Counted from the stretch's first letter, positions 5,896 to 40,589 are shown. The stretch: 42,995 nucleotides of DNA from Candidatus Aenigmatarchaeota archaeon (GCA_043824495.1 JBDRSV010000008.1:1-42995), one strand, 5' to 3'. Notes: a model not told the origin generated them from the sequence alone. Translations and numbers: made by a program.

Positions 5896-5984
5896 ATACT
5901 TCAAATGCCTAAAATAGCAGGAAACATCGAAAAGTGGGCAAAAATGTCTTATTTTTCGCCAAAAACACACATGTAGAGACTAAT

Positions 5985-6028
5985 AGAAAGCTTTAAATAC
6001 TCTTAATGTCACTAATAAGTAGTGACAT
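5985..6028 (+). promoter_or_regulatory. BRE/TATA promoter followed by a perfect 9-5-9 palindromic operator
   Basis: AGAAAG, TTTAAATA (5992-5999), then ATGTCACTA-ATAAG-TAGTGACAT (6006-6028); GAGGTGA RBS before 6052. Confidence 0.7.
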
Positions 6029-6051
6029 ATAATATGAGGTGATATATTCCT

Positions 6052-6231
6052 ATGGATGACAAAACAACAAATAGAATATTGGATTTGCAACCTGTTGGCG
6101 GTGAACCTGTTTGTGGTACTTACATAGCAGATGGTCAAAAAATTGGATATGAAATAGATCCCGCATCACAAGAAATTAGATTACATAATCTTGAGGGTGG
6201 ACAACGTTTAACAAGGAAATACCCAATATAA
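6052..6231 (+). CDS. 59-aa hypothetical protein (below the ORF-track cutoff)
   Basis: ATG 6052 to TAA 6231 (MDDKTTNRILDLQPVGGEPVCG...RKYPI); RBS GAGGTGA; promoter upstream. Confidence 0.7.
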   Translation: MDDKTTNRILDLQPVGGEPVCGTYIADGQKIGYEIDPASQEIRLHNLEGGQRLTRKYPI

Positions 6232-6235
6232 GTGT

Positions 6236-6637
6236 GTGATTAGTATGAATTCTACTGAAATTGCAAACGAAATTAAGAAATATGGAAAAGTGTTAAAATT
6301 AGCAGTAGGTGGAACAGGTATTGTAGTAGATTCGTATAACTTACCAGCTGATTTCCTAATCGAACTTTCAGAATATGCCAATGACCCAGAAAGTTGGCTA
6401 AATTTAACCGGAGAATTAGAAAATAAACCTGTTTTCATTTATACAGGATCTGGACACAATTATCTTAGAATGAGCCCCAGAGGTGGTCTTAGACCATATA
6501 CAATAGAAAAGTTAGAACGTGAGCTTGATTTAACAGATGATATTCTTCCTACACCAATAGGACAAACCAGACACGGAGAGGATCTTAGAACGTATTTGAG
6601 AGAGATGAATGCAAAAAATTTTGGTTCAGATCATTAA
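6236..6637 (+). CDS. hypothetical protein
   Basis: 133-aa ORF directly after the 59-aa ORF; no recognised motif. Confidence 0.65.
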   Translation: MISMNSTEIANEIKKYGKVLKLAVGGTGIVVDSYNLPADFLIELSEYANDPESWLNLTGELENKPVFIYTGSGHNYLRMSPRGGLRPYTIEKLERELDLTDDILPTPIGQTRHGEDLRTYLREMNAKNFGSDH

Positions 6638-7300
6638 CTACATGATATCGATTAATTTCTTCATTCCATCGTAATGGCCAGCGCCAATTACGACAACAAT
6701 TTTTTTGAATTTCGTAGATAAGTCTTCTAATTTCTTAACCATGAAAATGTTTCTTTCTGTTAGAAGAACTTTGTATAACTGAGGAAATTCTTCTCTAAGA
6801 ATAGACATAGCGTCATCTATCATGTCTTTTGGGGGAAGTTTAGAAAGATCTATTTTTTGTCTTGATAATTTAGACCAGACAGAACCTATAACAATTCCCT
6901 TTATCAAAAACCAAAAAAGTTTGAGTTTTTCTCCTGTGGTTATTTTTTGAATTCGTAAAAATGTCTGTCTTATGTCACGATCTATGAACGCTATTGTTAA
7001 TTTTTTCTTTTCTGCAATCTTAACAGCTTGCATCATTTCAGATCCAGGAAGTATTCCTGTTTTCTTACCTAACCAATTTTGTAGTTTTTTCATTGTCCAA
7101 TAAACCAGAAAACTACTAAATCCTATGTTTTTCAAAACTTCTGAATCAGAAGCTCCTTCTCCCTTTCTCTGCGCGAAGAACCTGTTTATATCAAGTTCTA
7201 CAGCAACACAATCAGGTTCTTCTTTCTCTATCACGCTCTCTACTTTCTTGACACTCTCAGAAGCTATGTGAGAAGTAGGAACAAGTATGATTTTGGCCAT
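6638..7300 (-). CDS. TraB/PrgY/GumN family protein
   Basis: LVPTSHIA, PDCVAVELD, GSEM, IDRDI, ERN, VIGAGH. Confidence 0.88.
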   Translation of the reverse strand: MAKIILVPTSHIASESVKKVESVIEKEEPDCVAVELDINRFFAQRKGEGASDSEVLKNIGFSSFLVYWTMKKLQNWLGKKTGILPGSEMMQAVKIAEKKKLTIAFIDRDIRQTFLRIQKITTGEKLKLFWFLIKGIVIGSVWSKLSRQKIDLSKLPPKDMIDDAMSILREEFPQLYKVLLTERNIFMVKKLEDLSTKFKKIVVVIGAGHYDGMKKLIDIM

Positions 7301-7343
7301 AACGTATTATTTAAATACTGGACTTTTATAGAATAATACAAAT

Positions 7344-7524
7344 GCCGAGGTGGCTGAATGGCTAAAGCGCCAGACTTGAATCCAGATATTATGATGATCC
7401 TTCCACTGTGGAAGAGGTTAAATGACTAGTTGGCTTGACTCGGATCCGGCGGGTTATGAAGAGTTACCCTGGAAATATATCTGGTGTCCGCAAGGACATG
7501 CAGGTTCAAATCCTGTCCTCGGCG
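7344..7524 (+). tRNA. tRNA-Ser(UGA) with a 98-nt intron at 37/38 (7381-7478)
   Basis: GCCGAGG/CCTCGGC acceptor, CCAGA/TCTGG anticodon stem, long variable arm TGTCC-GCAA-GGACA, TTCAAAT T-loop, G73; relaxed BHB with CCAG/CTGG outer helix. Confidence 0.92.
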
Positions 7525-7528
7525 TTTT

Positions 7529-8434
7529 TTATTTTTTCACTCTTAGAATATGCAATGTGTGATATTCTGGAACAGTTGGCTGATCACTTCCTAAATGAAT
7601 TACCTTTTCTTGAACGAAACCGTTTTCTTCGAATATTTTTTTCCACCCTTCTGGTGTGTTGAAATTGAATGGAACATTTACCTTTGTTTTTGGATCTTCA
7701 GAGAAGTGTATAATTCTATTATAGAAATGATCAAAAAATATGTTTACCTTTCTCTGTTTTTCCGCATCCAATTCTAGATAACTTTTTACTTTCTCTCTTT
7801 CTTCTGCTAGAAGTTCTTTACCATCAACACCGTAAACAGATTCTATTACAAGAACTCTTCCATTGTTCTTTGTTACCCTATGAGATTCTTTTAGTGTTTT
7901 GATAGGCACATCACTGTGATGGAACACTGTTAAGTCTAGAGTGTTTTCAAATGAGTCGTCTTCAAACGGTATGTCATCAGTTGACCCAAACAATTTGAAT
8001 TGTAATACTGTTTTTTTAACATATGAATGTTCGTATACATCAGATAGTATTACTTTAAAGTTTTTGGAAAGAAGTTCACCCAATCTTCCATCACCACAAC
8101 CAAGATCTAGTATAGAACCTTTCAAAACAAAATCTTTAACTTGACTATACATTATCTGTGCTCTATTATCTAGCTTTTTTGGTATTTCTTTTGTTACACC
8201 TTCTCTTTCCAAAATTTCATGAGCAGATTTTTCATATTCAACAATAGATGAATATTTTTTTGCTAAAGTCAAACATTCATCAATTATTTTTTCTGTTTTT
8301 GTTGGACTTATGCCTAAATGGTGTAGAATAGGGGAAATCATATCTCTAATTACAGTTCTTATAGACCCGTCTTGTACCACATCTTTAATTTCATATATTT
8401 CCAATCCGAAAGCGTTTCTTGCCATATTAATCAC
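7529..8434 (-). CDS. class I SAM-dependent methyltransferase
   Basis: ILDLGCGDG motif I, IPFEDDSF, VFHH. Confidence 0.85.
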   Translation of the reverse strand: MINMARNAFGLEIYEIKDVVQDGSIRTVIRDMISPILHHLGISPTKTEKIIDECLTLAKKYSSIVEYEKSAHEILEREGVTKEIPKKLDNRAQIMYSQVKDFVLKGSILDLGCGDGRLGELLSKNFKVILSDVYEHSYVKKTVLQFKLFGSTDDIPFEDDSFENTLDLTVFHHSDVPIKTLKESHRVTKNNGRVLVIESVYGVDGKELLAEEREKVKSYLELDAEKQRKVNIFFDHFYNRIIHFSEDPKTKVNVPFNFNTPEGWKKIFEENGFVQEKVIHLGSDQPTVPEYHTLHILRVKK

Positions 8435-25108: not shown

Positions 25109-25223
25109 GACGAGGTGGCCGAGCGGCTTAAGGCGCAGAATTCTTCTAAATAATTAGAAGAATGCGTAAGATTGCTAATCCTGTGTGCATCTGCACTCGG
25201 GGGTTCGAATCCCCCCCTCGTCG
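25109..25223 (+). tRNA. tRNA-Ser(GCU) with a 31-nt non-canonical intron at 29/30 (25139-25169)
   Basis: GACGAGG/CCTCGTC acceptor; CAG|GA with TCCTG restores the stem; BHB central helix GCGC/GCGT, 10-bp intron stem; G73. Confidence 0.9.
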
Positions 25224-25236
25224 CTATTGATTTGTT

Positions 25237-29559: not shown

Positions 29560-29589
29560 AGGGTTATGTTAATTGTTATATGGGCCTCG

Positions 29590-29645
29590 GCCTGATGATG
29601 AAAACCTCACATGATCCAATATGATTGTGACGGGCATTCTGACTT
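29590..29645 (+). ncRNA. candidate box C/D sRNA (predicted target 16S C1402)
   Basis: C ATGATGA 29595-601, D' ATGA 29611-14, C' ATGATTG 29621-27, D CTGA 29639-42; guide GTGACGGGC is complementary to 16S 1401-1409. Confidence 0.6.
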
Positions 29646-29679
29646 CTCTTGATAGTTGTTTATACTCGTGGACAATCTA
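29621..29679 (+). repeat. H repeat copy 1 (59 bp)
   Basis: 47/59 identical to 32399-32457 and 45/59 to 30365-30423 (manual count). Confidence 0.9.
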
Positions 29680-29988
29680 TTTCTTACCACTGTAATTCTT
29701 CTGATAAGTATCATGATCGCACCATTCCAAAACAAGTGCTATGATTGTTATTCCTTCCTTACCGAGGGAATAGAGAAGTCTCCAACCACTTGGTAAATCA
29801 TATTTCCACAGGTTATCTATGTCCTTGAGATTCTTGGGAATTCTATATTTCTTGAGAGGTATCCCAATTCCAGGGGTTTCAATTATTTGGATAAATGCCT
29901 TTGTCAATGTTTTGTAAAGCTATTTGAATTCAGTGCTTTTTTCAAGAGATTCATACTCTTCCTTCAGTTTCTTATCCCTGAATATCAT
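29677..29988 (-). pseudogene. RelE/ParE-like toxin with an in-frame TAG at 29920-29922
   Basis: ATG 29988 overlaps the antitoxin TGA; reads MIFRDKKLKEEYESLEKSTEFK*LYKTLTKAF...NLWKYDLPSGWRLLYS...LEW.DH. Confidence 0.75.
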
Positions 29989-30317
29989 TTCGGTTGCCAT
30001 TTGAGATCTTCCCTGTTTATGTACTTTCTCACCATTTCTGGATTATATATCCAGACAATATGTCCTTTATTGTCCTTGATCGTGAATCCCATTGTGTCAA
30101 AATAATCCAGGATTACTGTGAGTGTCGGCCACATAACCTCTTTCTTAAGGTTTCTTGAAAGCTCTGTCTTTGTACAAGGACTGATTCTTTTTAGAGTCTC
30201 TGCTACCATAATTACAGTGTCTAATCGCGGATAATGAACGACATTGCAATTGAGCTCTATACGCCATTCCGTATTCTTTCTGTCCTTTGTAGTAAGAAGA
30301 TTTTTTTGTGTTTTCAT
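29985..30317 (-). CDS. wHTH putative antitoxin/regulator
   Basis: YPRLDTVIMV...KTELSRNL...WPTLTVILDY; GGTGAT RBS; coupled to the toxin. Confidence 0.75.
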   Translation of the reverse strand: MKTQKNLLTTKDRKNTEWRIELNCNVVHYPRLDTVIMVAETLKRISPCTKTELSRNLKKEVMWPTLTVILDYFDTMGFTIKDNKGHIVWIYNPEMVRKYINREDLKWQPK

Positions 30318-30324
30318 ACCATCA

Positions 30325-30358
30325 CCTATATATCCATAGGTATATATGGACTTATAGG
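30325..30358. promoter_or_regulatory. interrupted 34-bp palindromic operator of the TA operon
   Basis: CCTATA-TA-TCCATA-GGTATA-TATGGA-CT-TATAGG between TATA and start codon. Confidence 0.65.
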
Positions 30359-30364
30359 TTTATA

Positions 30365-30423
30365 AAGGTTGTGACGGGCGTTCTGATTTTTCTTGATAGC
30401 GGTTTACCTTTGTGTGCAATCGA
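30365..30423 (+). repeat. H repeat copy 2 (59 bp)
   Basis: AAGGTTGTGACGGGCGTTCTGA...GCAATCG; direct repeat of copy 1 flanking the TA module. Confidence 0.88.
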
Positions 30424-30485
30424 TTTTTTTCTTTATTGAAACTACCAAAGACAAATGTTTTTATTCTCAAAAACATATTCATAAT

Positions 30486-30815
30486 ATGGTTTGTTTTATT
30501 GTTCCTCTAATAGCAACTATTATTGGATTTACTGGAAGAAAGGTGTTCAATAAGAAAGGTTCTCATGGATTTTGGTTGAACATAATGCTACTTGGTGGTG
30601 CGGTTTTTGGAGGAATAGATCACCTCTGGAACGGCGAGTTGTTCATTATTGGGACAAATTGGTTAATGGATTTGGCTCTAGGTGGTGCAATTACAGGTGG
30701 AATAGTTGCAAGTTGGGGTATTATATCATTCAAAGATAAAATAAATATCTCTAAGATGTTTGGAATATCAACTGAATTGAAAGTATTGCAGAATGCTCAT
30801 TCTAAAAATTCTTAA
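30486..30815 (+). CDS. small membrane protein (about 3 TM; start moved to ATG 30486)
   Basis: MVCFIVPL..., GGAVFGGIDHLWNGELF, DLALG. Confidence 0.75.
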   Translation: MVCFIVPLIATIIGFTGRKVFNKKGSHGFWLNIMLLGGAVFGGIDHLWNGELFIIGTNWLMDLALGGAITGGIVASWGIISFKDKINISKMFGISTELKVLQNAHSKNS

Positions 30816-30846
30816 ACTTTGAATACCAAAATACCACTAAAACGAT

Positions 30847-30922
30847 GCAATCTGACCGCAACGAGTAGGTTGTGCCGAGCCCTGGCTAGGCTATTTACCT
30901 TTTTAGTAGCTCTTCGGGGCTT
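30847..30922 (+). repeat. B dyad, diverged H start and core
   Basis: GCAATCTG-N11-TAGGTTGT at 30847-30873; CTCTTCGGGGCTT at 30910-30922. Confidence 0.75.
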
Positions 30923-30982
30923 CCAATCCCAGATATAGATAATCTTATAAGTCTCTTTTTTGAAAGGTTAAGAGGAAGTAAA

Positions 30983-31762
30983 ATGAAAGAATTCAAGGTT
31001 GCTGTTGCACAGATGGATATCAAACTTGAAGACAAGGAAGCAAATCTTAAGAAAACTGCTGAGATGGTTTCCACTGCAACAAAACAAGAGGCTGATTTTG
31101 TATGTCTGCCAGAATACCTCACGACAGGCAGTGCCCTAGAACAGTGCAGTAAACTAGCGGAGCCGATTCCAGGGCATGTAACCGACAGGCTAAGAGCAAT
31201 TGCCAAAGAGAATGGTGTGTATCTAGTCGCTTCGATTCCTGAGAGAACTGATGATAAGATTTACAACACAGCAGTTCTAATAGATCCCCGTGGAGAAGTC
31301 CTGACAAAATACAGGAAAATACACTTATTCATGGAGGAACGGAACCACATCGCCCGTGGTGGGGAGTATGTTGTTGCGGATACTGAATTCGGAAAAGTTG
31401 GATTGATGATATGTTATGATGCCGTCTTTCCGGAAATTGCAAGACAATTAGCACTGCAGGGCGCTGACATTGTTTTTATGCCTGCGAATTGGCCTAACCC
31501 TTTTTTGTCGCAGTGGAGACTGGCAACCAGTGCTCGTGCTTTAGACAATCAATTCTGGCTTGTAGCTACGAATCGCATTGGTGCAGACAGTAAATTCACT
31601 TATTCCGGTGGAAGCCGTGTAATAAACCCCTACGGAGATCCTGTTGTTGAATGTGGTGATAAAGAGGAGATTCTTGTTGCAACAGTCGACGGGAAAGTAA
31701 CTGAAGAGTTTAAGAGAACCGTTAATTTCTTGAATGACAGGCACTCAGAGGTCTATAAGTGA
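30983..31762 (+). CDS. carbon-nitrogen hydrolase (nitrilase/amidase family)
   Basis: LPEY, YRKIHLF, ICYD (E-K-C triad), SARALDNQ, NRIG. Confidence 0.92.
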   Translation: MKEFKVAVAQMDIKLEDKEANLKKTAEMVSTATKQEADFVCLPEYLTTGSALEQCSKLAEPIPGHVTDRLRAIAKENGVYLVASIPERTDDKIYNTAVLIDPRGEVLTKYRKIHLFMEERNHIARGGEYVVADTEFGKVGLMICYDAVFPEIARQLALQGADIVFMPANWPNPFLSQWRLATSARALDNQFWLVATNRIGADSKFTYSGGSRVINPYGDPVVECGDKEEILVATVDGKVTEEFKRTVNFLNDRHSEVYK

Positions 31763-31924
31763 AGCACTTAGATGTGAATATGAAAATTCGGCTAATCCGG
31801 ATGTTCGATGAAATGCCGCTCCATCCGGTCTTCAGAATTGGTGTGTTGCTCTCCCGGTACTCTAAACTTTTTATTGAGAACGTAAGCCTTAAAAATATTA
31901 ACTCCAATTATTAAAATAAATGAT

Positions 31925-32029
31925 GCAATCTGACCACAGCGAATAAATTGTGACGGGCATTCTGATATTTCTTGATAGTTGTTTTGGTGATAATCATAAA
32001 AGAAAATGTTCTACGTTCTCCCGGGGTTT
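31925..32029 (+). repeat. B dyad, H copy 3 (internally shortened) and core
   Basis: GCAATCTG-N11-TAAATTGT; 34/40 to H1; TGTTCTACGTTCTCCCGGGGTTT at 32007-32029. Confidence 0.85.
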
Positions 32030-32055
32030 TTAAGTATTGAATAATTCATTATCAT

Positions 32056-32373
32056 ATGGTTCATAGATGCCTTAAGAACGGGATTTGTTGTAAGTTATTT
32101 TTGATAAATTTGACAGAAGAGGAATACAAATCAGGTAAATATAAAACACAATTCGAAATGTTTGTACCGGTTAAGGACTTTAAGGAAGCTGAAATATGCG
32201 GTGCAAATATTATTGAACAAAAAAAGGACGGAAGTTGCTATTATCTTAAAGGCACCAAATGCTCTATTCATAATTCAAGACCTATGACTTGCAGGGAATT
32301 CTTTTGTGACTCAAAAAATAAGAAATTCAAGACAATGATAGCTGAGATAAAAAAACTGAAAAGAGTGCAGTAG
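32056..32373 (+). CDS. YkgJ-family Cys-cluster protein
   Basis: CxxxGxCC, C..L.GTKCSIHNSRPMTCREFFC. Confidence 0.85.
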   Translation: MVHRCLKNGICCKLFLINLTEEEYKSGKYKTQFEMFVPVKDFKEAEICGANIIEQKKDGSCYYLKGTKCSIHNSRPMTCREFFCDSKNKKFKTMIAEIKKLKRVQ

Positions 32374-32379
32374 AACTAT

Positions 32380-32540
32380 ACAATCTGCTCGCAACGGACA
32401 GGTTGTGACGGGAATTCTGAAGCCTCTTGTTAGCGGTTTACACTCGTGGACAATCTGATTCTGACGAACAAATTGCAGCATTAAAATATGGGCTCTTAAC
32501 TTTATGTTCAACTCCCTCCCGGGGCTTTAAGTCTGGGACT
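32380..32540 (+). repeat. B dyad, H copy 4, second B, core and AGTCTGGGACT flank
   Basis: ACAATCTG at 32380 and 32450 (70-bp period); GTTCAACTCCCTCCCGGGGCT at 32506-32526. Confidence 0.88.
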
Positions 32541-32599
32541 ATGATTATTGTTCATTAATAATGCATAAGTTTATATATTAGTAATGCACAATATTAAGC

Positions 32600-33802
32600 A
32601 TGGTATTAAAAGAAACATTAAAAAATGTGGCTAAACTTCAGCGAAAGGAATTTAAATCTGTTGAGTTGGGAATTCCAAGGGATATCCTTAAAACTATAGA
32701 TTTGAATATACCGCATGCAATAATACTTTCTGGTGTGAGAAGATGTGGAAAAAGCACACTACTAAAACAACTCATCAATAAAATTAACAAATATTATTAC
32801 TTCAATTTTGAAGACCAGAGAGCACTCGGTTTTGTTGTTAGGGATTTTGAAAATTTGGATTCAGTGTTTAACGATGAGTTTGGAAAATCCAAAACATATT
32901 TCTTTGATGAAATACAGAACGTTGATGAGTGGGAACGATTTGTACGAAGCAGGCAGGATTCAGGGAAGAAATTTATAATAACAGGGTCTAATGCATCTCT
33001 TTTAAGTAAAGAATTGGGCACAAGGCTAACTGGAAGACATATAAACTATGAATTGTTCCCGTTTTCATATTCTGAAATGCTTCAGTTGGAATCAAAAAAA
33101 TCCTCTTTGGATTCATTTGGGTATTATATGAAAAATGGAGGATTCCCGGAGTTTTTGAAATATAAAAAGATTGAAATGCTGCAGGAATTGTTTAATGATA
33201 TAATAGTAAGGGACATAATAACAAGATATGGTCTAAGAGAAACAAAAATAATAAAGGAAATGGCCATATATCTCCTAACAAATGTTGGAAAGGAATTTTC
33301 CTATACAAATCTTGCAAAATATTTCAATCTCGGTTCAACGAACACTGCAATATCATACGTTTCTTATTTTGAGGACAGTTACCTGCTTTTCACAATACCA
33401 ATGTTTGATTACTCCTTTAGGAAACAATTGGTTAATCCAAAGAAAGCATATTCCATTGATGTCGGTTTATCAAGAGCCAATTCCGCTTCTTTTTCAGATG
33501 ACAAGGGCAGAATTTTTGAAAACATCATTTTTCTAGAACTGAGAAGAAGGTATAAGGAAATATTTTATTTCAAGGGCAAGAAAGAATGTGATTTTTTAGT
33601 TAAGGAAAAAGGGAAGCTAAAAGAAGCTATACAAGTTTGTTATGAACTTACAGAAGAGAATAAAGAAAGAGAACTCTCCGGATTACAGGAAGCTATGGAA
33701 AAACTAAAAATAAACAAAGGAACAATTATTACATTAAATCAGGATGACAGATTGGGTGATATAGCTGTTAAACCAGCCTGGAAATGGCTTCTAATGAATT
33801 AA
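32600..33802 (+). CDS. AAA_14 + DUF4143 ATPase
   Basis: SGVRRCGKST, FFDEIQ, ITGSNAS, KKAYSIDVG, KECDF. Confidence 0.9.
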   Translation: MVLKETLKNVAKLQRKEFKSVELGIPRDILKTIDLNIPHAIILSGVRRCGKSTLLKQLINKINKYYYFNFEDQRALGFVVRDFENLDSVFNDEFGKSKTYFFDEIQNVDEWERFVRSRQDSGKKFIITGSNASLLSKELGTRLTGRHINYELFPFSYSEMLQLESKKSSLDSFGYYMKNGGFPEFLKYKKIEMLQELFNDIIVRDIITRYGLRETKIIKEMAIYLLTNVGKEFSYTNLAKYFNLGSTNTAISYVSYFEDSYLLFTIPMFDYSFRKQLVNPKKAYSIDVGLSRANSASFSDDKGRIFENIIFLELRRRYKEIFYFKGKKECDFLVKEKGKLKEAIQVCYELTEENKERELSGLQEAMEKLKINKGTIITLNQDDRLGDIAVKPAWKWLLMN

Positions 33803-33805
33803 ATT

Positions 33806-33882
33806 GAGAACAGAAGACACACGACAAGCAGGGATTTCATCCCAGGAATTCTATCCCTCCCGGGGCTTCTAGTCTGGGACTG
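33806..33882 (+). repeat. D element, core and AGTCTGGGACT flank
   Basis: 56/64 identical to 35214-35276; GGGAT-TTC-ATCCC hairpin. Confidence 0.9.
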
Positions 33883-34001
33883 CGGTCCCCGACAGTTTTC
33901 AGTCATGGGTTTATTGAATGTGCTTAAGTATGCATTGTGGATAGAAAATATCTTCTATTGATAATAGAAACATTTAAATATACGTCTCTCTAAATATTAT
34001 T

Positions 34002-35210
34002 ATGATAACAAAAGAGACGCTTAAGGAAGTAATAGTTTCACAGAGAGAGTTCCTGGACAAGATGGATCAGGGAACTCCAAGAGAAAAGAAGATAAAGATA
34101 TTGGATTCTTTTGCCACTATAATCACCGGAATAAGAAGATGCGGAAAGAGTACTTTACTCAATCAGCTGCTGAAAAAACAGAAAAAAGGATACTATCTTA
34201 ACCTTGAGGATCCCCGTCTGGAAGATTTTGAACTCCAGGATTTTAACAAAATAGATGAAATAATGAAGGAGCTTCATGGAGACAAAGGAGTTTATTTTTT
34301 TGATGAAATACAAAATGTTGACAAATGGGAGAAATTCATAAGGTACCTCATTGATAAAAAGGAAAGAATCGTAATAACTGGTTCGAATGCCTCTCTTCTA
34401 AGCCGGGAACTTGGAACAAAACTTACAGGAAGGCATTTACAGGAGGAAATGTTTCCTTTCTCTTTCAGAGAATTTCTTGATATGAGAAAAGAACCCCCAT
34501 CCCTAAAATCTTTTGATAAGTATTTCTATACAGGAGGCTTCCCAGAATATATTAAGAAGCAGAATCCCCCAATACTTCACGAACTGCTTTCAGATGTTGT
34601 GATGAAGGATATTGCTGTAAGGTTTGGAATAAAGAACACAAGCATGCTGAACAAGGTTGCAATCCATCTAATTAGCAACGCAGGAAAGGAATTCTCCTTC
34701 AATTCCATAAAGAAGATGTTCGAAATAAAGTCAGTCCAGAGCGTCATAGATTATGTATCTTATTTTGAGGATGCCTATATGATATTTACCGTGCCTCGTT
34801 TTAGCTATTCATACAAACAGCAGATTGTGAATCCAAAAAAGGTTTATTCTATTGATAATGGCTTTTCTCATAACAATTCAACTTCATTCTCAAAGGATAA
34901 AGGAAGAATGCTTGAGAATGTCGTTTTTCTGGGATTAAGAAGGAAATTCAAGGATATTTTCTATTTCCAAAAGAAATATGAATGTGATTTTGTCATCAAA
35001 GAGGGGAATAAAATAACACGCGCAATTCAGGTTTGTTTTGATTTCAATGAGGAAAACAAAGACAGGGAAATGAAAGGCATTCTTGACGCTCTGAAAGAGT
35101 TTAAATTAAATGAAGGGCTTATTCTAACCTACAATCAGGAAGACGAATTCTTGGCGGATGGCAAAAAAATAACTGTAAAGCCCGCTTGGAAGTGGCTTCT
35201 AACAAAATGA
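34002..35210 (+). CDS. AAA_14 + DUF4143 ATPase (paralog 2)
   Basis: TGIRRCGKST, FFDEIQ, ITGSNAS, KKVYSIDNG. Confidence 0.9.
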   Translation: MITKETLKEVIVSQREFLDKMDQGTPREKKIKILDSFATIITGIRRCGKSTLLNQLLKKQKKGYYLNLEDPRLEDFELQDFNKIDEIMKELHGDKGVYFFDEIQNVDKWEKFIRYLIDKKERIVITGSNASLLSRELGTKLTGRHLQEEMFPFSFREFLDMRKEPPSLKSFDKYFYTGGFPEYIKKQNPPILHELLSDVVMKDIAVRFGIKNTSMLNKVAIHLISNAGKEFSFNSIKKMFEIKSVQSVIDYVSYFEDAYMIFTVPRFSYSYKQQIVNPKKVYSIDNGFSHNNSTSFSKDKGRMLENVVFLGLRRKFKDIFYFQKKYECDFVIKEGNKITRAIQVCFDFNEENKDREMKGILDALKEFKLNEGLILTYNQEDEFLADGKKITVKPAWKWLLTK

Positions 35211-35213
35211 ATC

Positions 35214-35308
35214 GAGGACAGAAGACCGAAAACAAACAGGGATTTCATCCCAGGAATTCCATCCCTCCCGGGGCTTTACCAATTTCTAGATGTCGCTTGT
35301 TATCGATT
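35214..35308 (+). repeat. D element, core and CCAA...TTATCGATT flank
   Basis: D copy 2; right flank 25/30 identical to 38645-38674. Confidence 0.9.
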
Positions 35309-35430
35309 AATTTCTTAAAATAAAATCTCCATTAGGGAACTGCACTTCAATTGCAGGTTAGCCGGAAAGTTGATGCTGGAATTTCTGGAAGATTAAATAA
35401 CGGCCTATATAATTAATTAATAGGATTACG

Positions 35431-36471
35431 ATGTCTGAAAGAAAACTTAATATTTTCAATAAATACCTTACTATTTGGGTAGTTTTGTCTATTAGTATAG
35501 GAACTTTAATTGGATATTTTTTTCCAACTTTTGCAGACACAATTGGAAAATTTGAGATATCAAATATATCCATTCCAATTACATTAGTGTTATTATTTAT
35601 GATGTATCCTATTATGTTAAAAATAAACATAAAGGATATAATTAAAGTAAAAAAAGACAAAAAACCATTGGGTTTGACCCTTTTAATTAACTGGGGAATT
35701 AAGCCATTCAGTACAGCTCTCATAGCATGGTTTTTTATAAGATTTGTATTTTCATCTTTCATCCCTCTGGGTCTTCAATCAGAATACATCGCTGGAATGA
35801 TCCTATTGGGAATTGCACCATGTACAGCTATGGTTCTTGTTTGGACTCATCTTGCTGGTGGAAATGTAAATTACGCCCTTGTACAAGTTTCCGTGAATGA
35901 TATTATCATTCTGATACTTTTTGCTCCTTTAGGTAAATTATTACTTGGCATCACGACAAATTTCCCTGTACCATTTTATACTATCTTATTTTCTGTTCTA
36001 TTTTATGTTGGTATACCATTAATACTTGCTGGTTTGACTAGATACTTTTTGATTAAGAAATATGGGAAAGATTGGTTTCATGATATTTTTATTAATAAAG
36101 TTCAATGGATAAGCCCATTTGGATTATTATTAACTTTGGTTTTACTTTTTATTTTCCAGGGGGATAAAATAATATCATATCCAATACACATTATTCTCAT
36201 TGCCATACCTCTTATAATACAAACATATTTTGTCTTTGCTGTTGGATATTTTGGAGCAAAAAAATTAAAAATTCCATATAATGAAGCTGCGCCATCAACG
36301 TTTATTGGTGCTAGTGATTTCTTTGAACTCGCTGTAGGGGTCGCTATAATATTATTTGGACTCAATTCTGGAGCTGCTTTAGCTACAGTTGTTGGGGTTC
36401 TTGTAGAAGTTCCTTTGATGTTGTCTCTCGTAAAGATAATGAAAATGAAAAAATCGCGTTTTAAATTCTAA
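35431..36471 (+). CDS. acr3: ACR3 arsenite efflux transporter
   Basis: MMYP, LLINWGIKPF, APCTAMV, GASDFFELA, GVLVEVP. Confidence 0.93.
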   Translation: MSERKLNIFNKYLTIWVVLSISIGTLIGYFFPTFADTIGKFEISNISIPITLVLLFMMYPIMLKINIKDIIKVKKDKKPLGLTLLINWGIKPFSTALIAWFFIRFVFSSFIPLGLQSEYIAGMILLGIAPCTAMVLVWTHLAGGNVNYALVQVSVNDIIILILFAPLGKLLLGITTNFPVPFYTILFSVLFYVGIPLILAGLTRYFLIKKYGKDWFHDIFINKVQWISPFGLLLTLVLLFIFQGDKIISYPIHIILIAIPLIIQTYFVFAVGYFGAKKLKIPYNEAAPSTFIGASDFFELAVGVAIILFGLNSGAALATVVGVLVEVPLMLSLVKIMKMKKSRFKF

Positions 36472-36482
36472 AATTATTGATT

Positions 36483-36557
36483 TTTAACTCCTAAGATCAA
36501 TAATACATAGAATTCTCCTATAAGTGGTAATTCAGTTGCCAGGCACTCCCGAGGCTT
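36483..36557 (+). repeat. E element and core, copy 1
   Basis: 65/75 identical to 38568-38642. Confidence 0.9.
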
Positions 36558-36582
36558 AGAATTTAATTCTAATAATGAACAT

Positions 36583-37179
36583 TTACTCAAATTTTGACAA
36601 GAATTGTTCTCCTGTTCTTACAATATAATCTTTAGCATTTTCAGCGCCTTTAGACGTTATGTGAATAAGGTACAGGCCTTTGGCAACCCAAAGATGATAG
36701 TAGTAGACTCCTGGTTCATTAAACTGGCCCCCATAATCATTTTCATTGTTCACACGAAATCTACTCTGATCCCCAAAATCATTCTCGCTTATAAGTCCTT
36801 GGACACTGTACAAGTGCGAGGATTCATATTGGTATGTGTTATTTAGGGCTTCATAATTTGCAAATTTCTTCAATTCAATTATTACTTGGGTATCATTCAA
36901 GCTAGGAATTAGGTAGGCACAGATGCTATATTGCCCCAGTGATGAATCTGCAATATTTGTATAACTTTCCTCTGTTCGACAATTGGTTCCAGTGCTCAAT
37001 CCAAGCTGCTGAAGGTCTTGTTCATTAAGGTCGCTCGTCATTCCAAGCTGCTGAAGATCTTGTTCACTGAGAATCAGATCCTGGGTTCCTGGTACTATAT
37101 TGATTGTATTTGATTGTGTGCATCCAGAAATAATTATAATAATCGCCAAAAGGCCAAGTATCATAAAATTCTTTCTCAT
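36583..37179 (-). CDS. hypothetical lipoprotein
   Basis: basic N-terminus, hydrophobic stretch, ISGC; internal LxEQDLQQLG duplication. Confidence 0.8.
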   Translation of the reverse strand: MRKNFMILGLLAIIIIISGCTQSNTINIVPGTQDLILSEQDLQQLGMTSDLNEQDLQQLGLSTGTNCRTEESYTNIADSSLGQYSICAYLIPSLNDTQVIIELKKFANYEALNNTYQYESSHLYSVQGLISENDFGDQSRFRVNNENDYGGQFNEPGVYYYHLWVAKGLYLIHITSKGAENAKDYIVRTGEQFLSKFE

Positions 37180-37238
37180 GAATTATAATAAGATTCAATC
37201 TATATAATAATTAGAGGAGCTTTGAACTATTTGTCCTA

Positions 37239-37254
37239 ATCCCTCTCGGAGCTC
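37239..37254 (+). repeat. isolated degenerate core
   Basis: ATCCCTCTCGGAGCTC, 13/16 to ATCCCTCCCGGGGCTT. Confidence 0.6.
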
Positions 37255-37384
37255 TCTGTTTCTATTGTAATGCTGGATTTTTCTTATGAGCATATTGCCA
37301 CTTCTGAACCTGATAAAGTAGTTAGAATAATTAAAAGCATGATTCCAAATATTAATAGGTGATTTTCTGACAGAATTTATATTC

Positions 37385-38194
37385 ATGCTAGCTCCCATAG
37401 AGGATATGACAAGCAATGCTTTTAGGACTCTATGTCACAGATACGGTGCTGACCTGACGTTCACTGAGATGGCTAAGGTGGGAGCGCTCGTGAAGAATAA
37501 CAAAAGCACATGGTCCAGACTAGAGTGTAAAGATGAAACCCCTACAGTCATACAACTTCTTGGTAGTAGAGAACAGTATTTCAGGGAATTTCTTGACATG
37601 TTCGAGCCGTCCAATGATTTTCGCGGCTTCAATATCAATCTAGGATGCCCGAGCCCGGATGTCATAAAATTCGGACAGGGATGCGCCATGATTAGGAAGA
37701 TAAGCAAGACGAGAAGGATAATAAACATATTCAAAGATTATGGTTTTGACGTTTCCATAAAGATGAGATTGGGAATGAATGAGAAGGACAAAGAACATAA
37801 GATTTATCTTAAGATAATAGAGTCTGTTGATGCAGATTTCTTTGTGATTCATGCAAGGCATGGAGCTCAGACCTATGCCAATCCTGCAGATTTCGAGGTT
37901 TACGAAGAATGTACTAATACCGGAAAGATCATCATCGCAAACGGCGACATCAAAACCATGGAGCAGATGAAATACCTTAAAGATATTGGAATAAAAGGGG
38001 TCATGATCGGGAGGGTGGCAGTTCTTGATCCGGCCATATTCAATAGACTGAAGGGCTTGCCAAGTCCACAACCAGAGAAAATCAAGGAAGAGTACCTCAT
38101 ACTATCGGAAAAATTCCAGGAGCCATTGAAATATAAAAATAATATATCAAGACGCATCGGAATGTCCGACATGCCATTATTTGACAACAAATGA
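37385..38194 (+). CDS. tRNA-dihydrouridine synthase family protein
   Basis: LAPIE, FTEM, QLLG, NINLGCP, KMR, IHARH, ANGDI, GVMIGR. Confidence 0.9.
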   Translation: MLAPIEDMTSNAFRTLCHRYGADLTFTEMAKVGALVKNNKSTWSRLECKDETPTVIQLLGSREQYFREFLDMFEPSNDFRGFNINLGCPSPDVIKFGQGCAMIRKISKTRRIINIFKDYGFDVSIKMRLGMNEKDKEHKIYLKIIESVDADFFVIHARHGAQTYANPADFEVYEECTNTGKIIIANGDIKTMEQMKYLKDIGIKGVMIGRVAVLDPAIFNRLKGLPSPQPEKIKEEYLILSEKFQEPLKYKNNISRRIGMSDMPLFDNK

Positions 38195-38228
38195 AGTTTA
38201 ACGTGAAATGTAATTTGTCACGTATTCT

Positions 38229-38567
38229 TTGCAAAGATTGCATGAAAGAATTGTTAGTGAATCAGATAAATATAGAATAGAAGCTGTTCCTATAGGCGTT
38301 CAGCAAGGTTTGATTGATCTTACAGAAGCAGAGTCTGGAAGTATGGTTGAATTTTCATATCCTTTTGCTTTAGCTTCATTCAGATCCCATTTTACAATAG
38401 GAAGAACTTTGGAACCAAATCCATCTGAAGATGAAATTAGAGCATTATTAGAGGATGATGTTTTTGCACTTCATGGATATACACTTTCTCCTGATGAAAT
38501 TATAATGTACAATGCAGGTGTAGATGGTAGTTGTATAGAAATTGTGGAAAGATTACCACTAAAATAA
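38229..38567 (+). CDS. hypothetical protein (TTG start)
   Basis: 112-aa ORF ending directly at an E element. Confidence 0.55.
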   Translation: MQRLHERIVSESDKYRIEAVPIGVQQGLIDLTEAESGSMVEFSYPFALASFRSHFTIGRTLEPNPSEDEIRALLEDDVFALHGYTLSPDEIIMYNAGVDGSCIEIVERLPLK

Positions 38568-38674
38568 TTTAACTCCTAAGATCAAATATAACTAGAATTC
38601 TCCTGTAAGTGGTAATTCAGTTGCCAGAAACTTCTGGGGCTTTTCCAACTTCTATGTGTCACATGTTATCGATT
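38568..38674 (+). repeat. E element, core copy 2 and CCAA...TTATCGATT flank
   Basis: begins immediately after the stop codon at 38567. Confidence 0.9.
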
Positions 38675-38771
38675 TAGACCTGAGTTTGCACGAGGAAGAG
38701 ATAAAATCTAGAATCAGATACTTCTTATATCCCCAAGTTAATATCTAACTACTTAAAATGGAGGTTTTATT

Positions 38772-39032
38772 ATGAAAGTTATAAAGAGAGATGATAAACG
38801 AGAGGACTTCAACAACAATAAAGTTAGAAAGGCTATTGAAGAGGCAGCAAAAAGAACAGACGTCGACAACGACAGAACCAAAGAAATAGTAGACAAGGTT
38901 GCAAAAGATGTTGAAGAGAATTTCAAAGACAAGGATGAAGTGAAAAGCGCCGATATTCGAGAAAGAATTCTAGAAAGACTGAACAAAGAAGAGAAAAAAG
39001 TCGCTAATTCATTCAGAGATTATAAAAAATAG
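38772..39032 (+). CDS. stand-alone ATP-cone domain protein
   Basis: MKVIKRDDKREDFNNNKVRKAI; GGAGG RBS. Confidence 0.85.
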   Translation: MKVIKRDDKREDFNNNKVRKAIEEAAKRTDVDNDRTKEIVDKVAKDVEENFKDKDEVKSADIRERILERLNKEEKKVANSFRDYKK

Positions 39033-39046
39033 TAAGTCAGATTCTT

Positions 39047-39076
39047 AAGGGAGTATTTCTCCTTTCTTTATTTTTT
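39047..39076 (+). terminator. hairpin plus T-tract after the ATP-cone gene
   Basis: AAGGGAG-TATTT-CTCCTTT followed by a T-rich run. Confidence 0.55.
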
Positions 39077-39094
39077 ACATGTAAATTGAGAGAT

Positions 39095-39169
39095 TTTTAA
39101 GTATCAAATTCAATCATATATAGAATTCTCCTAAGTGGCAATTCAGTTTCTAGATACTCCCGGGGTTTT
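39095..39169 (+). repeat. E element and core, copy 3 (diverged)
   Basis: TAGAATTCTCCTAAGTGGCAATTCAGTTTCTAGATACTCCCCGGGGTTT (39121-39169). Confidence 0.85.
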
Positions 39170-39451: not shown

Positions 39452-39904
39452 CTAAATTCCAGCGAAGCCTGCGATTCCACCAACTAAACCGGGTACTATT
39501 GTTATGGTGATGAAATAGAATATAATTGCTATTATTATATTGTGTAGGAAATGGACTTCATGGAAACTTGCTGATAGGAATATGATCCATATGAGTACAG
39601 GGAACAACAATCCAGCGAAAGGTATTCCTGCAATGAATGGGAGTATCAGACCCATCAAGCCAAGGAAATTAATTATATTGATTAATAATACGATGAGGAA
39701 GATTTTAGTTACCTGTACACTTCCTCCAGACCTCTTGCTTAATACAGTATATATAATAAGAAGCAAGATTCCGGCCACGACCGTGGAAAGTATCAAGTTT
39801 ATACCAAGACTTAACCAGTAGTCTGTTCCTCCTGATAATGCAAAATCATTGATAGCCATCAAGTCTGGTATCCAGTCAACCATACTATATAATTGTATAG
39901 ACAC
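39452..39904 (-). CDS. hypothetical membrane protein (about 4 TM)
   Basis: 150-aa hydrophobic ORF co-oriented with the glmS operon. Confidence 0.7.
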   Translation of the reverse strand: MSIQLYSMVDWIPDLMAINDFALSGGTDYWLSLGINLILSTVVAGILLLIIYTVLSKRSGGSVQVTKIFLIVLLINIINFLGLMGLILPFIAGIPFAGLLFPVLIWIIFLSASFHEVHFLHNIIIAIIFYFITITIVPGLVGGIAGFAGI

Positions 39905-39914
39905 GTATAAAAAT

Positions 39915-40589
39915 TTAGCTTAGAAGCTTTCTGGCCTTTTCTAAATCTTCTGGGTAAGCAATAGGTATCCATTTCTTTGCTAGAACACAATGCAGCGCCA
40001 CTTTCTTGGAAAGAGCTAAAACAGCAGAAGTGAGTTCATATTCGTTTCTTTCTGTTTTTTCTATTTTTTCAAGCTCATCGAATATCTTAGTGTCAAGAAC
40101 GTAAACACCCAGATTAGCTAAATCAGAAACAAACTCTTTGGGTTTTTCAACGAAATCTTTTACAATATTATTCTCGGTTACGAAGACTCCGAATCTTGTT
40201 GGATCCTCAACTTTCTGAACAAGAACTGCATAATCATAATCTAAACAAGCTTTGATATCTTCTTTGTCGTATAAATCATCTCCCATCAAAACAAGAAATC
40301 TGTCATTGACAACTGATTTAGTTTGTTGTAAAGCATGACCTGTACCTAGTTGCTCTTTTTGTTCTACGTAAACTAGTTTCATTCCCTTATAATCAGAACC
40401 GAATCTAGCTTTTATGTCATCTCCTTTATAACCAATAACTAGAACAACTTCATCAACTAAGCTTATGAGTTGATCTAAGTTGTGTTCAAGAATTGTTTTC
40501 TCTCCAATTTTTAGTAGAGGCTTAGGAGTATCTAAAGTTAGAGGTCTCATTCTCGTAGCTTTCCCTGCTGCTAATATTACTGCTTGCAT
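39915..40589 (-). CDS. sugar-phosphate nucleotidyltransferase (GlmU N-domain-like, no LbH domain)
   Basis: VILAAGKATRMRPLT..PKPLL, QLGTGHA, GDD, EKP. Confidence 0.9.
   Translation of the reverse strand: MQAVILAAGKATRMRPLTLDTPKPLLKIGEKTILEHNLDQLISLVDEVVLVIGYKGDDIKARFGSDYKGMKLVYVEQKEQLGTGHALQQTKSVVNDRFLVLMGDDLYDKEDIKACLDYDYAVLVQKVEDPTRFGVFVTENNIVKDFVEKPKEFVSDLANLGVYVLDTKIFDELEKIEKTERNEYELTSAVLALSKKVALHCVLAKKWIPIAYPEDLEKARKLLS

Follow-up and report, generated by a model that had tools for sequence, protein, structure and literature searches.

A repeat derived from the 3' end of tRNA-Thr separates small accessory-gene modules in an Aenigmatarchaeota genome and probably marks a tandem stack mobilised in trans

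In the 42,995-nt stretch of DNA analysed here (the window), from contig C8 of a metagenome-assembled genome (MAG) of a Candidatus Aenigmatarchaeota archaeon, small gene modules follow one another in a row, separated by a short repeat that matches the 3' end of a tRNA gene. We conclude that this region is probably a tandem stack of small, cis-mobilizable, integrase-less modules at tRNA-Thr-derived att sites, with catalysis provided in trans. It is a small-scale version of an island-building process already known, and no new kind of integron.

Results

A core repeat identical to the 3' end of tRNA-Thr

The core YTCYCGRGGYTT has six exact matches in the window (32018, 32516, 33857, 35265, 36546 and 39157), against 0.07 expected by chance, and none of 100 shuffles gave six. 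Three to four degenerate copies accompany them: the core at 38631 is the consensus with 2 mismatches, the degenerate cores at 30910 and 37243 are backed by homologous flanking arms, and a putative core near 31850 shows a weak resemblance and nothing more. All copies, exact and degenerate, lie on the + strand and are restricted to 30.9-39.2 kb. They occupy gaps between ORFs, as the original prediction had described; an exact and mismatch search of the 42,995 nt found none elsewhere in the window, its other intergenic DNA included.

Across the whole genome, the 14-mer TCCCTCCCGRGGCT with at most 2 mismatches gave 15 matches, against 0 for a reversed control. Thirteen of these fall outside ORFs of at least 100 aa, and 3 of the 15 coincide with the 3' terminus of a genuine tRNA gene. 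One match is on C5 and the others cluster on contigs C8, C9 and C15; the core is thus not a common component of ordinary intergenic DNA.

Letter for letter, the core reproduces the final 12-17 nt of tRNA-Thr(UGU), also in the tRNA-Thr genes of relatives, and comprises the 3' strand of the T-stem, the 3' strand of the acceptor stem and the discriminator base. The tRNA-Thr(UGU) gene of this genome (contig C9, c[3189,3300], ending ...TCCCTCCCGAGGCTC) stands at the head of an array of its own. The 3' end of a tRNA gene is a classic docking site and the textbook target of tyrosine integrases; the earlier view that the repeat belongs to no described archaeal system is therefore not upheld. Since the core is the 3' end of tRNA-Thr, the window array is best read as stacked integrase-less modules built by site-specific recombination.

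Modules and junction elements

The modules (Table 1) have one or two genes of unrelated accessory function, as had been proposed. Pfam/NCBIfam matches were obtained for CN hydrolase, CxxCxxCC/YkgJ, two AAA_14-DUF4143 proteins, ACR3 (376 bits, cut-off 282.8), Dus, a DUF1045-like protein and ATP-cone, and a 198-aa ORF has a lipobox-like ISGC at its N-terminus. Two modules lie on the - strand, so that cassette genes occur in both orientations, and TATA-like boxes can be read in the sequence ~25-30 nt upstream of most cassette genes. The ORF pair of module 1 is possibly a toxin-antitoxin, and module 2 probably starts further downstream than listed. Type IV repeat copy 1 lies close behind a HAD gene (stop at 29559) and forms the left border of the variable region. 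The 1-kb bin around module 3 has 42.5% GC, compared with a background of ~35%.

Table 1. Repeats, modules and right flank of the variable region, from left to right (window coordinates)
Feature	Position	Strand	Remarks
Type IV repeat, copy 1	29625..29687	+	Diverged core TTGTGACGGGCA and right arm with CTTGATAG box
Module 1: two small ORFs, 76 and 110 aa	29677..30317	-	No family match
Type IV repeat, copy 2	30369..30431	+	85% identical to G001 element after HAD
Module 2: small membrane protein	30393..30815	+	No family match
Junction element ending in degenerate core CTCTTCGGGGCT at 30910	30840..30921	+	
Module 3: nitrilase-family CN hydrolase	30983..31762	+	Profile match
Type IV repeat, copy 3, then core 32018-32029	31918..32029	+	
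YkgJ (CxxCxxCC) cassette, type IV copy 4, left arm, core 32516-32527	32030..32527	+	
AAA_14-DUF4143 cassette 1, type I left arm, core 33857	32528..33868	+	
D2 right arm (33869-33910), AAA_14-DUF4143 cassette 2, type I left arm, core 35265	33869..35276	+	
D1 right arm, ACR3 arsenite efflux gene, type III left arm, core 36546	35277..36557	+	
Lipoprotein-like gene (36583-37179, -), type II left arm, degenerate core 37243	36558..37254	+	
Dus and DUF1045-like genes, type III left arm, degenerate core 38631	37255..38642	+	
D1 right arm, ATP-cone gene, type III left arm, last core 39157	38643..39168	+	
Right flank: 150-aa membrane ORF and NTP-transferase gene	39452..40589	-	Conserved

The cores are embedded in longer mosaic elements, in which left arms of four families and right arms of several families occur in shuffled combinations around the core; type II left arms also occur at C9:1142-1086, C29:3917 and C5:56860. 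A second repeat, type IV (TTGTGACGGGCA..CTTGATAG), is found in the left third of the region and aligns to the core and right arm of a canonical att unit of the order (described below); with model R1, the alignment places 31968-32020 on the right-arm half of that unit. Every module in 29.6-39.2 kb has a core or a type IV repeat at both ends, and none encodes a recombinase. These flanks are diverged direct repeats of 12-63 nt; AAA_14-DUF4143 cassette 1, for example, is framed by a 28-nt direct repeat (32513-32540 and 33854-33881). A search for inverted repeats returned scattered AT-rich pairs of 71-89% complementarity, none of them framing a module. A MITE or IS with target-site duplications was rejected on these grounds, the modules having direct repeats and no terminal inverted repeats.

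The junction elements abut upstream stop codons, as noted before, and precede promoter-like boxes. This arrangement would also suit intergenic elements that do not recombine, namely terminator/promoter modules or small RNA genes such as the C/D-box-like stretch at 29590-29645, and the left-border copy can be parsed, by reading its letters, into a C box, a D box and a guide with complementarity to 16S GCCCGUCAC. We consider this highly improbable, as no Rfam family matched, the C and D boxes are retained neither in the other copies nor in the same-genus genome G001, type IV aligns to an att unit, the presence/absence breakpoints of genes fall at the repeats, and the core is a tRNA 3' end.

The hallmarks of integrons are an IntI-type tyrosine recombinase, with its specific insertion, beside the array, a folded attC site (RYYYAAC...GTTRRRY) and mostly promoterless cassettes in one orientation that are driven from Pc. 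Single-strand DNA folds of eight window junctions contained no attC-like hairpin (z from -2.5 to +1.6, mostly near 0; seven of the eight no better than shuffles), and the consensus fold of the canonical unit (-8.9 kcal/mol) has 0 compensatory pairs, i.e. no covariation. The reported lack of attC sites is thereby borne out; the likeness to integrons is weakened by the cassettes' own TATA-like boxes, their presence on both strands and the integrases that stand directly behind cores in two genomes (see below).

Arrays and a canonical unit in related genomes

Among the 91 genomes of the order, the 14-mer has 73 matches in 48 genomes, against 2 control matches; several of the 73 are at contig ends. 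At L015, L016, L018, L019 and L166-L169 an intact tRNA-Thr ends in the core and further cores follow 0.07-2.1 kb apart. Arrays headed by an intact tRNA-Thr were found on C9 and in G029, G032, G038, G010, G063, G047, G086 and G074. In relatives, the cassettes of such arrays measure 0.4-1.6 kb and hold one or two genes, and some are bounded by a conserved unit of ~110 nt. This canonical unit is conserved in 35 of the 91 genomes, spans three families of the order and has internal GTGCYAWGC sub-repeats. Behind tRNA-Thr in G074, it delimits four single-gene cassettes, each of which keeps full-length units scoring 76-87 bits. The window's own units match the canonical model weakly (at most 22.6 bits) and several window cores are decayed, and parts of the window array may therefore be inactive relics. 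No free element with the arms was found in IMG/VR.

Exchange of modules between species and between loci

Relative to G001, the cassettes are neither the same set nor in the same order, and the breakpoints between the two species fall at cores and type IV repeats, as expected of the site-specific stacking originally proposed; a relative with the same genes in the same order would have spoken against it. The YkgJ cassette (core 32018 to 32540, 523 nt) is 97% identical in G001 but has different neighbours there, and the match begins exactly at the core; by comparison, nucleotide identity over the tRNA-Ala/HAD stretch is 67%, and the uL16 proteins share 73% of their amino acids. AAA_14-DUF4143 cassette 1 is absent from G001 between the same two flanks, again with breakpoints at repeats. 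The two-ORF module 1 is absent as well: in G001 a single type IV element, the equivalent of window 30368-30427, follows directly behind HAD. The Dus gene (89% identical) is followed in G001 by the lipoprotein gene, an order reversed relative to the window. The core and D2 arm (33854-33910, 57 nt) are 100% identical in G001, where they precede an integrase. In another relative, G018, AAA_14-DUF4143 cassette 2 is 81% identical and lies beside a 3' fragment of tRNA-Thr, with no full tRNA detected there.

The window arrays have no heading tRNA. The left part lies behind HAD, and the right part lies, by synteny, between uL16 and the gene normally found beside it: the membrane ORF and NTP-transferase genes adjoin uL16 in at least 10 relatives, with no array between, and the core was found at 0 of 52 uL16 loci of other Aenigmatarchaeota. 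Contigs from the probable source sample connect uL16 with window 32513-33839 without a mismatch. A second source-sample contig agrees, in its letters and its length, with the window up to 32529 continued into the integrase element of contig C15. The two contigs are a reciprocal exchange exactly at core 32516. Assembled contigs thus give alternative partners at this core, and neither a circle junction nor an empty site was seen among them. Based on these independent contigs and on synteny, contig C8 may join two separate arrays at core 32516. For those assembling MAGs from these lineages, contig breaks and false joins at cores are a practical caution.

A different history would make the modules relic scars, i.e. 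decayed remnants of separate full-size integrative plasmids or viruses that each once used the tRNA-derived site with an integrase of their own, became small by deletion and do not move today. The degenerate cores and arms at 30910, 37243 and 38631, the type IV copies and the weak match of the window units to the canonical unit agree with it, as do homologues of some cargo genes that stand, in more distant relatives, in ordinary contexts without cores, and arrays retained in genomes that yielded no integrase of the C15 family. We nevertheless judge this history unlikely for the array as a whole. It does not readily accommodate a single-gene cassette at 97% identity beside a stretch at 67%, the four full-length-unit cassettes of G074, or two assemblies with alternative junctions at a core, and repeated decay to exactly one gene plus both att arms would be unparsimonious.

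A candidate integrase encoded elsewhere in the genome

The profiles of tyrosine (PF00589) and serine (PF00239) recombinases have no match in the window, consistent with the earlier statement that it holds no integrase. On contig C15, a 418-aa tyrosine recombinase with a C-terminal zinc ribbon (C15:61315-62571) starts 68 nt past a core at C15:61247, which itself abuts the uL16 stop codon. This protein retains the R, K, HxxR, H and Y residues and has a paralogue on contig C24. In G001 (contig C49), the YkgJ cassette, a core and the D2 arm are followed by another integrase of the same family. We infer that the C15 zinc-ribbon integrase is the best candidate for the enzyme that acts on cores in this genome, a link that rests on adjacency in two genomes (this MAG, G000, and G001). 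The suggestion of catalysis in trans would agree with a window that has no recombinase and a candidate encoded elsewhere.

In several relatives with arrays or canonical units, no integrase of the C15 family was found. G010 (87% completeness) has no PF00589 match; the one tyrosine recombinase found in G063, whose assembly is a single contig, lies 150 kb away and is not of the C15 family; and the array of G029 has no integrase on the same contig. G010 and G063 would be at home with an integron-like capture platform, in which the ~110-nt unit is the substrate of a host recombinase (XerA, as in Xer-exploiting IMEX, or another), integrases of mobile elements are not involved and the tRNA likeness reflects only the origin of the site. 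The integron-like size of the cassettes and the conservation of the unit, with its sub-repeats, in three families point the same way. Such a platform appears quite unlikely to us, however: it has no enzyme to point to, the best tyrosine recombinases of the genome score 36-46 bits on the IntI model TIGR02249 (cut-off 265), neither an attC-like hairpin nor covariation was seen, the cassettes have promoter-like boxes of their own in both orientations, and in G000 and G001 integrases stand directly behind cores, the arrangement of ordinary integrative elements.

Discussion

The tandem stack that we favour could be built as follows. A circular module would carry an attP-like site made of left arm, core and right arm, and a tyrosine integrase encoded elsewhere would join it by recombination to any core copy in the chromosome. 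Since each integration leaves two cores, new modules could be added beside old ones. Recombination between two direct cores would excise or reorder modules, and recombination between arrays at different loci would swap array tails. We infer the acting enzyme, the circular intermediates and present-day activity.

A more far-reaching version, which we hold to be somewhat unlikely, is a dedicated cassette-exchange system in an Aenigmatarchaeota order, built on the ~110-nt unit around the tRNA-Thr 3' end with its GTGCYAWGC sub-repeats. Here a zinc-ribbon integrase or XerA would act in trans to capture, reorder and exchange promoter-bearing single-gene cassettes among several docking sites and between species. 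If true, this would be a functional integron analogue that uses double-stranded att sites in genome-reduced archaea.

Arrays of att-bounded modules without integrase are a known outcome of tandem accretion, as in CIMEs (PMC5704250), and a known result of repeated integration at tRNAs (bioRxiv 10.1101/2020.12.28.424599). In CIMEs and streptococcal islands of the ICESt1/ICESt3 type, as here, modules without integrase keep attL and attR, the direct repeats copy the 3' end of the target gene, newcomers enter a resident att site to form tandem arrays, and mobilisation needs the integrase of another element, which for our array is proposed (PMC5704250). The modules described here differ in being far smaller (0.5-1.4 kb, one or two genes) and without transfer genes, in their DPANN host, in occupying non-tRNA sites too (the 3' ends of HAD and uL16), and in having as att unit a ~110-nt sequence conserved in related genomes; their excision is proposed. 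Tycheposons of Prochlorococcus islands are likewise tyrosine-recombinase elements aimed at tRNA genes, where successive integrations shift older elements inward and leave degenerate remnants and partial tRNAs in the variable islands of a streamlined genome (bioRxiv 10.1101/2020.12.28.424599). In contrast to these, no replication or packaging hallmark genes were seen in our modules, single-gene modules keep both arms, and the integrase family has a zinc-ribbon C-terminus.

Integrons, including archaeal ones, and CALINs share with the present arrays small accessory cassettes separated by recombination sites, many arrays without an adjacent integrase, and cassettes apparently exchanged between lineages (PMC9668308). 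They differ from the system described here, which has no IntI, no folded attC, no R''/R' geometry and no attI/Pc platform, and in which the core is tRNA-derived and cassettes lie on either strand with promoter-like boxes of their own. The tRNA inserts of Thermococcaceae resemble it in their archaeal host, the duplicated 3' part of a tRNA at the far end and a tyrosine integrase, but are single inserts of 9-23 kb, as compared to many modules of at most 1.5 kb in a row (PMC9897764).

Integron-looking arrays can thus arise through ordinary tRNA-targeting integrases, which bears on attC-free cassette clusters in metagenomes. DPANN archaea, with genomes of ~1 Mb, are believed to rely on hosts and on imported genes; to our knowledge, the route by which they take up accessory genes is poorly known. 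The host of the present array is a tiny groundwater archaeon. Its swappable modules carry accessory cargo that includes arsenite efflux, a nitrilase-family hydrolase, ATPases and a possible toxin-antitoxin pair, and at least one module is near-identical between species with far more diverged flanks, a concrete route of gene flux for Aenigmatarchaeota.

Recurrence and placement of the core

The short direct repeat that parts the gene modules, YTCYCGRGGYTT, occurs in the window in six exact copies, all six on the + strand, against a chance expectation of 0.07 in a pattern search of the window. Comparison with the ORF calls placed every copy of the core between genes, and no core was found outside the array region across the window. 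The original prediction of a recurring intergenic core is thus borne out; of the positions it listed, the six exact copies, one copy with two mismatches and two more degenerate ones stand (Table), and the copy near 31850 is merely a weak resemblance. The sequence also bears out that junction elements abut the upstream stop codons, and Pfam and NCBIfam searches agreed with most of the functions that had been assigned to the modules; the lipoprotein-like ORF has a lipobox-like N-terminus.

The cores sit within longer mosaic elements, in which four left-arm families (types I-IV) and several right-arm families (D1, D2 and a flank resembling the sequence downstream of the tRNA) pair variously around the core. 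The left third of the region is distinguished by another repeat, type IV (TTGTGACGGGCA..CTTGATAGYKGTTT). Neither gathering-threshold nor E-value scans of the window with Rfam gave a match to the repeats, returning tRNAs and chance-level hits only. The left border of the region, at 29590-29645, can be read as a C/D-box sRNA (ATGATGA ... CTGA), with a D guide, GTGACGGGC, complementary to the universal 16S sequence GCCCGUCAC; the MAG itself is without a 16S sequence. We rejected a C/D-box identity for the left border and the type IV repeats: the remaining copies and G001, a genome of the same genus, do not keep the boxes, and type IV aligns to a canonical core and right arm.

Table. Cores, arrays, integrases and other features in the window (contig C8), in other contigs of the same MAG (C9, C15, C24, C29) and in genomes of relatives (G numbers)
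Location	Coordinates	Feature	Remarks
C8	32018, 32516, 33857, 35265, 36546, 39157	Core	Exact
C8	38631	Core	Consensus with two mismatches
C8	30910, 37243	Core	More degenerate, anchored by homologous arms
C8	30983-31762	Nitrilase-family module	
C8	32528-33868	AAA cassette 1	AAA_14-DUF4143
C8	33869-35276	AAA cassette 2	AAA_14-DUF4143
C8	37241-37392	152-nt contig	Degenerate core, Dus promoter, first 8 nt of Dus
C8	7343-7525, 25109-25224, 27803-27906	tRNA genes	Called with introns
C9	c[3189,3300]	tRNA-Thr(UGU) gene	Intron-bearing
C9	1097, 447	Cores after the tRNA	With the window's type II and type III arms
C15	61315-62571	Tyrosine integrase	418 aa
C15	68548, 69417	Additional cores	Downstream of the integrase
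C24	45838-47345 (L005)	Tyrosine integrase	407 aa
C29	3917-5110	Gene between type II arm with decayed core and type III arm with core	Presumably a Fic/Doc-type protein, by eye
G029		tRNA-Thr-headed array	Three cassettes; by eye, presumably two nucleotidyltransferase/HEPN-type modules and one Fic protein
G038, G032, G010		tRNA-Thr-headed arrays	Shorter; second core of G010 67 nt off
G063, G047, G086		tRNA-Thr-headed arrays	Two units each
G074:C25 (L166)	5234-8317, reverse strand	Intron-bearing tRNA-Thr, then four single-gene cassettes	By eye, presumably cupin-like, small membrane protein, CPBP-like membrane protein, HAD-like

The core is the 3' end of a tRNA-Thr gene

The window is one of the 29 contigs of a 1.01-Mb MAG, and its DNA is present in groundwater metagenomes. 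The uL16 sequences most closely related to that of the MAG carry the label Candidatus Aenigmatarchaeota. Another contig of the MAG, C9, carries a tRNA-Thr(UGU) gene whose 3' end reads ...GGTTCAAGTCCCTCCCGAGGCTC, so the core is made up of this tRNA's T-stem 3' strand, acceptor 3' strand and discriminator base. Two further cores follow the gene on C9, and the small array locus on C29 continues into a flank duplicating what lies downstream of the C9 tRNA-Thr.

A scan of the whole genome with the 14-mer TCCCTCCCGRGGCT, allowing up to two mismatches, gave 15 matches (13 of them outside ORFs) and none for the reversed control. Across the order the 14-mer has 73 matches in 48 of 91 genomes, as compared to 2 for the reversed control, with several of the matches lying at contig ends. 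In the relatives of the Table, arrays begin with an intact tRNA-Thr gene that has the core at its end. The cleanest array seen is that of G074.

A conserved unit of about 110 nt surrounds the core

Low-GC contigs with a common unit of about 110 nt emerged when metagenomes were scanned for the core together with a TYGATATCG box downstream of it. The unit consists of a left arm (AAATATGTGCTATGCTCCCCGATTTTAGTGCCATGCC), the core, and a right arm (TCAGGCTCTCTTGATATCGGTTTT..GAGAATCCCAAAGGAAAATGTGCTAAGCCCTC). Alignments A1 and A2 show GTGCYAWGC(C) three times in this unit in direct orientation: the left arm has two copies, and the right arm ends in the third, behind which lies a partial core, CCCTCGG. 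These copies are possibly arm-type binding sites. In G074 every cassette has a complete canonical unit (about 110 nt, 76-87 bits) as its boundary.

A sequence-only model of the unit, R1, matched 35 of the 91 genomes of the order at E <= 0.001. At E <= 1e-6 the unit was seen only in three families of the order and in one genome from another family of the class, and searches of over 100 additional genomes of the phylum with R1 did not find it. The window's own units have diverged from R1, scoring at most 22.6 bits, yet their matches fall on known junctions. A reading of the modules as pure relics is unlikely. The segment 31968-32020 aligns to the right-arm half of R1 and ends at core 32018, and on this alignment the best reading of type IV is a decayed core followed by a right arm.

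Gene order changes at the repeats

G001 is 67% identical to the window at the nucleotide level over the tRNA-Ala/HAD stretch, and its uL16 is 73% identical at the amino-acid level. Segment 32018-32540 is 97% identical to G001, with the match starting exactly at the core and a different left neighbour. G001 joins the left arm of core 32516 straight to the core 33857 right arm (57 nt, 100% identical) and therefore lacks AAA cassette 1, around which the window has a 28-nt direct repeat. Immediately after the HAD gene G001 has a type IV element followed by other genes, the two-ORF module being absent, and it carries Dus (89% identical) and the lipoprotein gene (74%) in reversed order. Cassette content and order thus differ in this relative, as the original prediction implied, with breakpoints at cores or type IV repeats.

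AAA cassette 2 is found in G018 (81% identical) between a second core and a 3' fragment of tRNA-Thr, at which no full tRNA was detected. The two-ORF module, the membrane-protein gene and the lipoprotein gene have homologues in more distant relatives, with no cores found near them. It is very improbable that the repeats are non-recombinational.

Independent contigs from the probable source sample depart from the MAG in two places. A 30.5-kb contig joins the 3' end of uL16 to 32513-33839 with zero mismatches; a 61.5-kb contig follows the window from 6653 to 32529, its one mismatch agreeing with the C15 core, and then extends by 35.6 kb, a length equal to that of C15 from the integrase onward, with C15-specific letters included. 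The difference between these contigs and the MAG is a reciprocal exchange exactly at the core (32513-32529; C15:61244-61260), where the C8 and C15 loci have only 13 nt in common.

In at least 10 relatives, G001 among them, uL16 is directly followed by homologues of 39452-39904 and 39915-40589 with no core, and 52 further uL16 loci are without a core as well; two relatives have a homologue of C15:73031-74239 close to HAD. Synteny favours the independent-contig version as the collinear one. Together, synteny and the independent contigs therefore place 29560-32527 behind HAD, continuing into the integrase element, and make 32528-39168 an insertion between uL16 and its usual neighbour. Contig C8 may be a chimera or represent a recombinant subpopulation; either way, the partner switch lies at the core.

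The 152-nt contig has a depth of 152.8, about four times the 35-41 of its neighbours, and the joint from 37392 back to 37241 is present in two runs from different studies. It probably represents a gene-less unit that is repeated several times in tandem and appears as a single collapsed copy in the MAG. Runs X2 and X3, whose coverage of the stretch is short and of low depth, were used for this joint only.

Tyrosine integrases and the assembly of the array

Searches with PF00589 and PF00239 found no tyrosine or serine recombinase in the window, as had been noted from the sequence. Genome-wide there are seven PF00589 matches, none of them on C8, and no serine recombinase (PF00239). The C15 integrase has the tyrosine-recombinase catalytic residues and a C-terminal CxxC...CxxC zinc ribbon, and begins 68 nt past a core that directly adjoins the uL16 stop codon. 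Its zinc-ribbon paralogue on C24 lies 212 nt after tRNA-Thr(GGU) and probably represents an integrated element of its own that uses another tRNA-Thr. Neither protein is an IntI: their TIGR02249 scores of 36-46 bits fall short of the cut-off, 265.

G001 encodes a further member of the family, which shares 29-35% identity with the C15 and C24 proteins; there the YkgJ cassette is followed by a core, a D2 arm and the integrase gene. The family is sporadic across relatives, often beside other tRNAs; the integrases of the 408-aa family in G074 are on a different contig from its array. No C15-type integrase was found in the array-bearing G010 and G063, or on the array's contig in G029, and its co-occurrence with arrays across relatives follows no consistent pattern. 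The genome encodes a XerA-like protein in the C10:59190 region; action of a host recombinase such as XerA, as on IMEX elements, is quite unlikely.

The most likely mechanism is that the array is built by site-specific accretion, in which circular modules carrying an attP-like site would recombine with chromosomal copies of the tRNA-derived core, catalysed by a tyrosine integrase supplied in trans. The proposal of a recombination-built stack of cassettes served in trans therefore holds, and its claim to be a new kind of system does not, since the core is a tRNA-Thr 3' end.

Searching IMG/VR for free elements with two arm-plus-core patterns gave no match, and the type III arm pattern had none among metagenome contigs. 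In IMG/VR the 16-mer core matched 12 viral contigs, mostly of high GC (0.40-0.66), whose flanks were unrelated; we took these matches as chance.

Relation to known systems

Nothing at the junctions or in the units folds like attC, confirming the claimed lack of attC geometry, and the array is no integron as PMC9668308 uses the term. It resembles cis-mobilizable elements and their tandem accretion (PMC5704250), the partial tRNAs that build up in islands of streamlined cyanobacteria (bioRxiv 10.1101/2020.12.28.424599), and the partial tRNAs left by archaeal integrated elements (PMC9897764). Its unusual features are the miniature modules of one or two genes with their own promoter-like boxes, a complex unit conserved in related genomes, and arrays at non-tRNA sites. 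We found such arrays nowhere described in the Aenigmatarchaeota paper PMC8407114.

Two of the three window tRNA genes called with introns are confirmed by Rfam, namely tRNA-Ser(UGA) and tRNA-Val(UAC), whose introns measure 98 and 31 nt, respectively; the call at 25109-25224 comes from the ARAGORN intron mode alone. Because this option missed known tRNAs, Rfam tRNA hits were used instead. The nitrilase-family module falls in a 1-kb bin of 42.5% GC, as compared to about 35% in the rest of the contig, which is consistent with a recent foreign origin.
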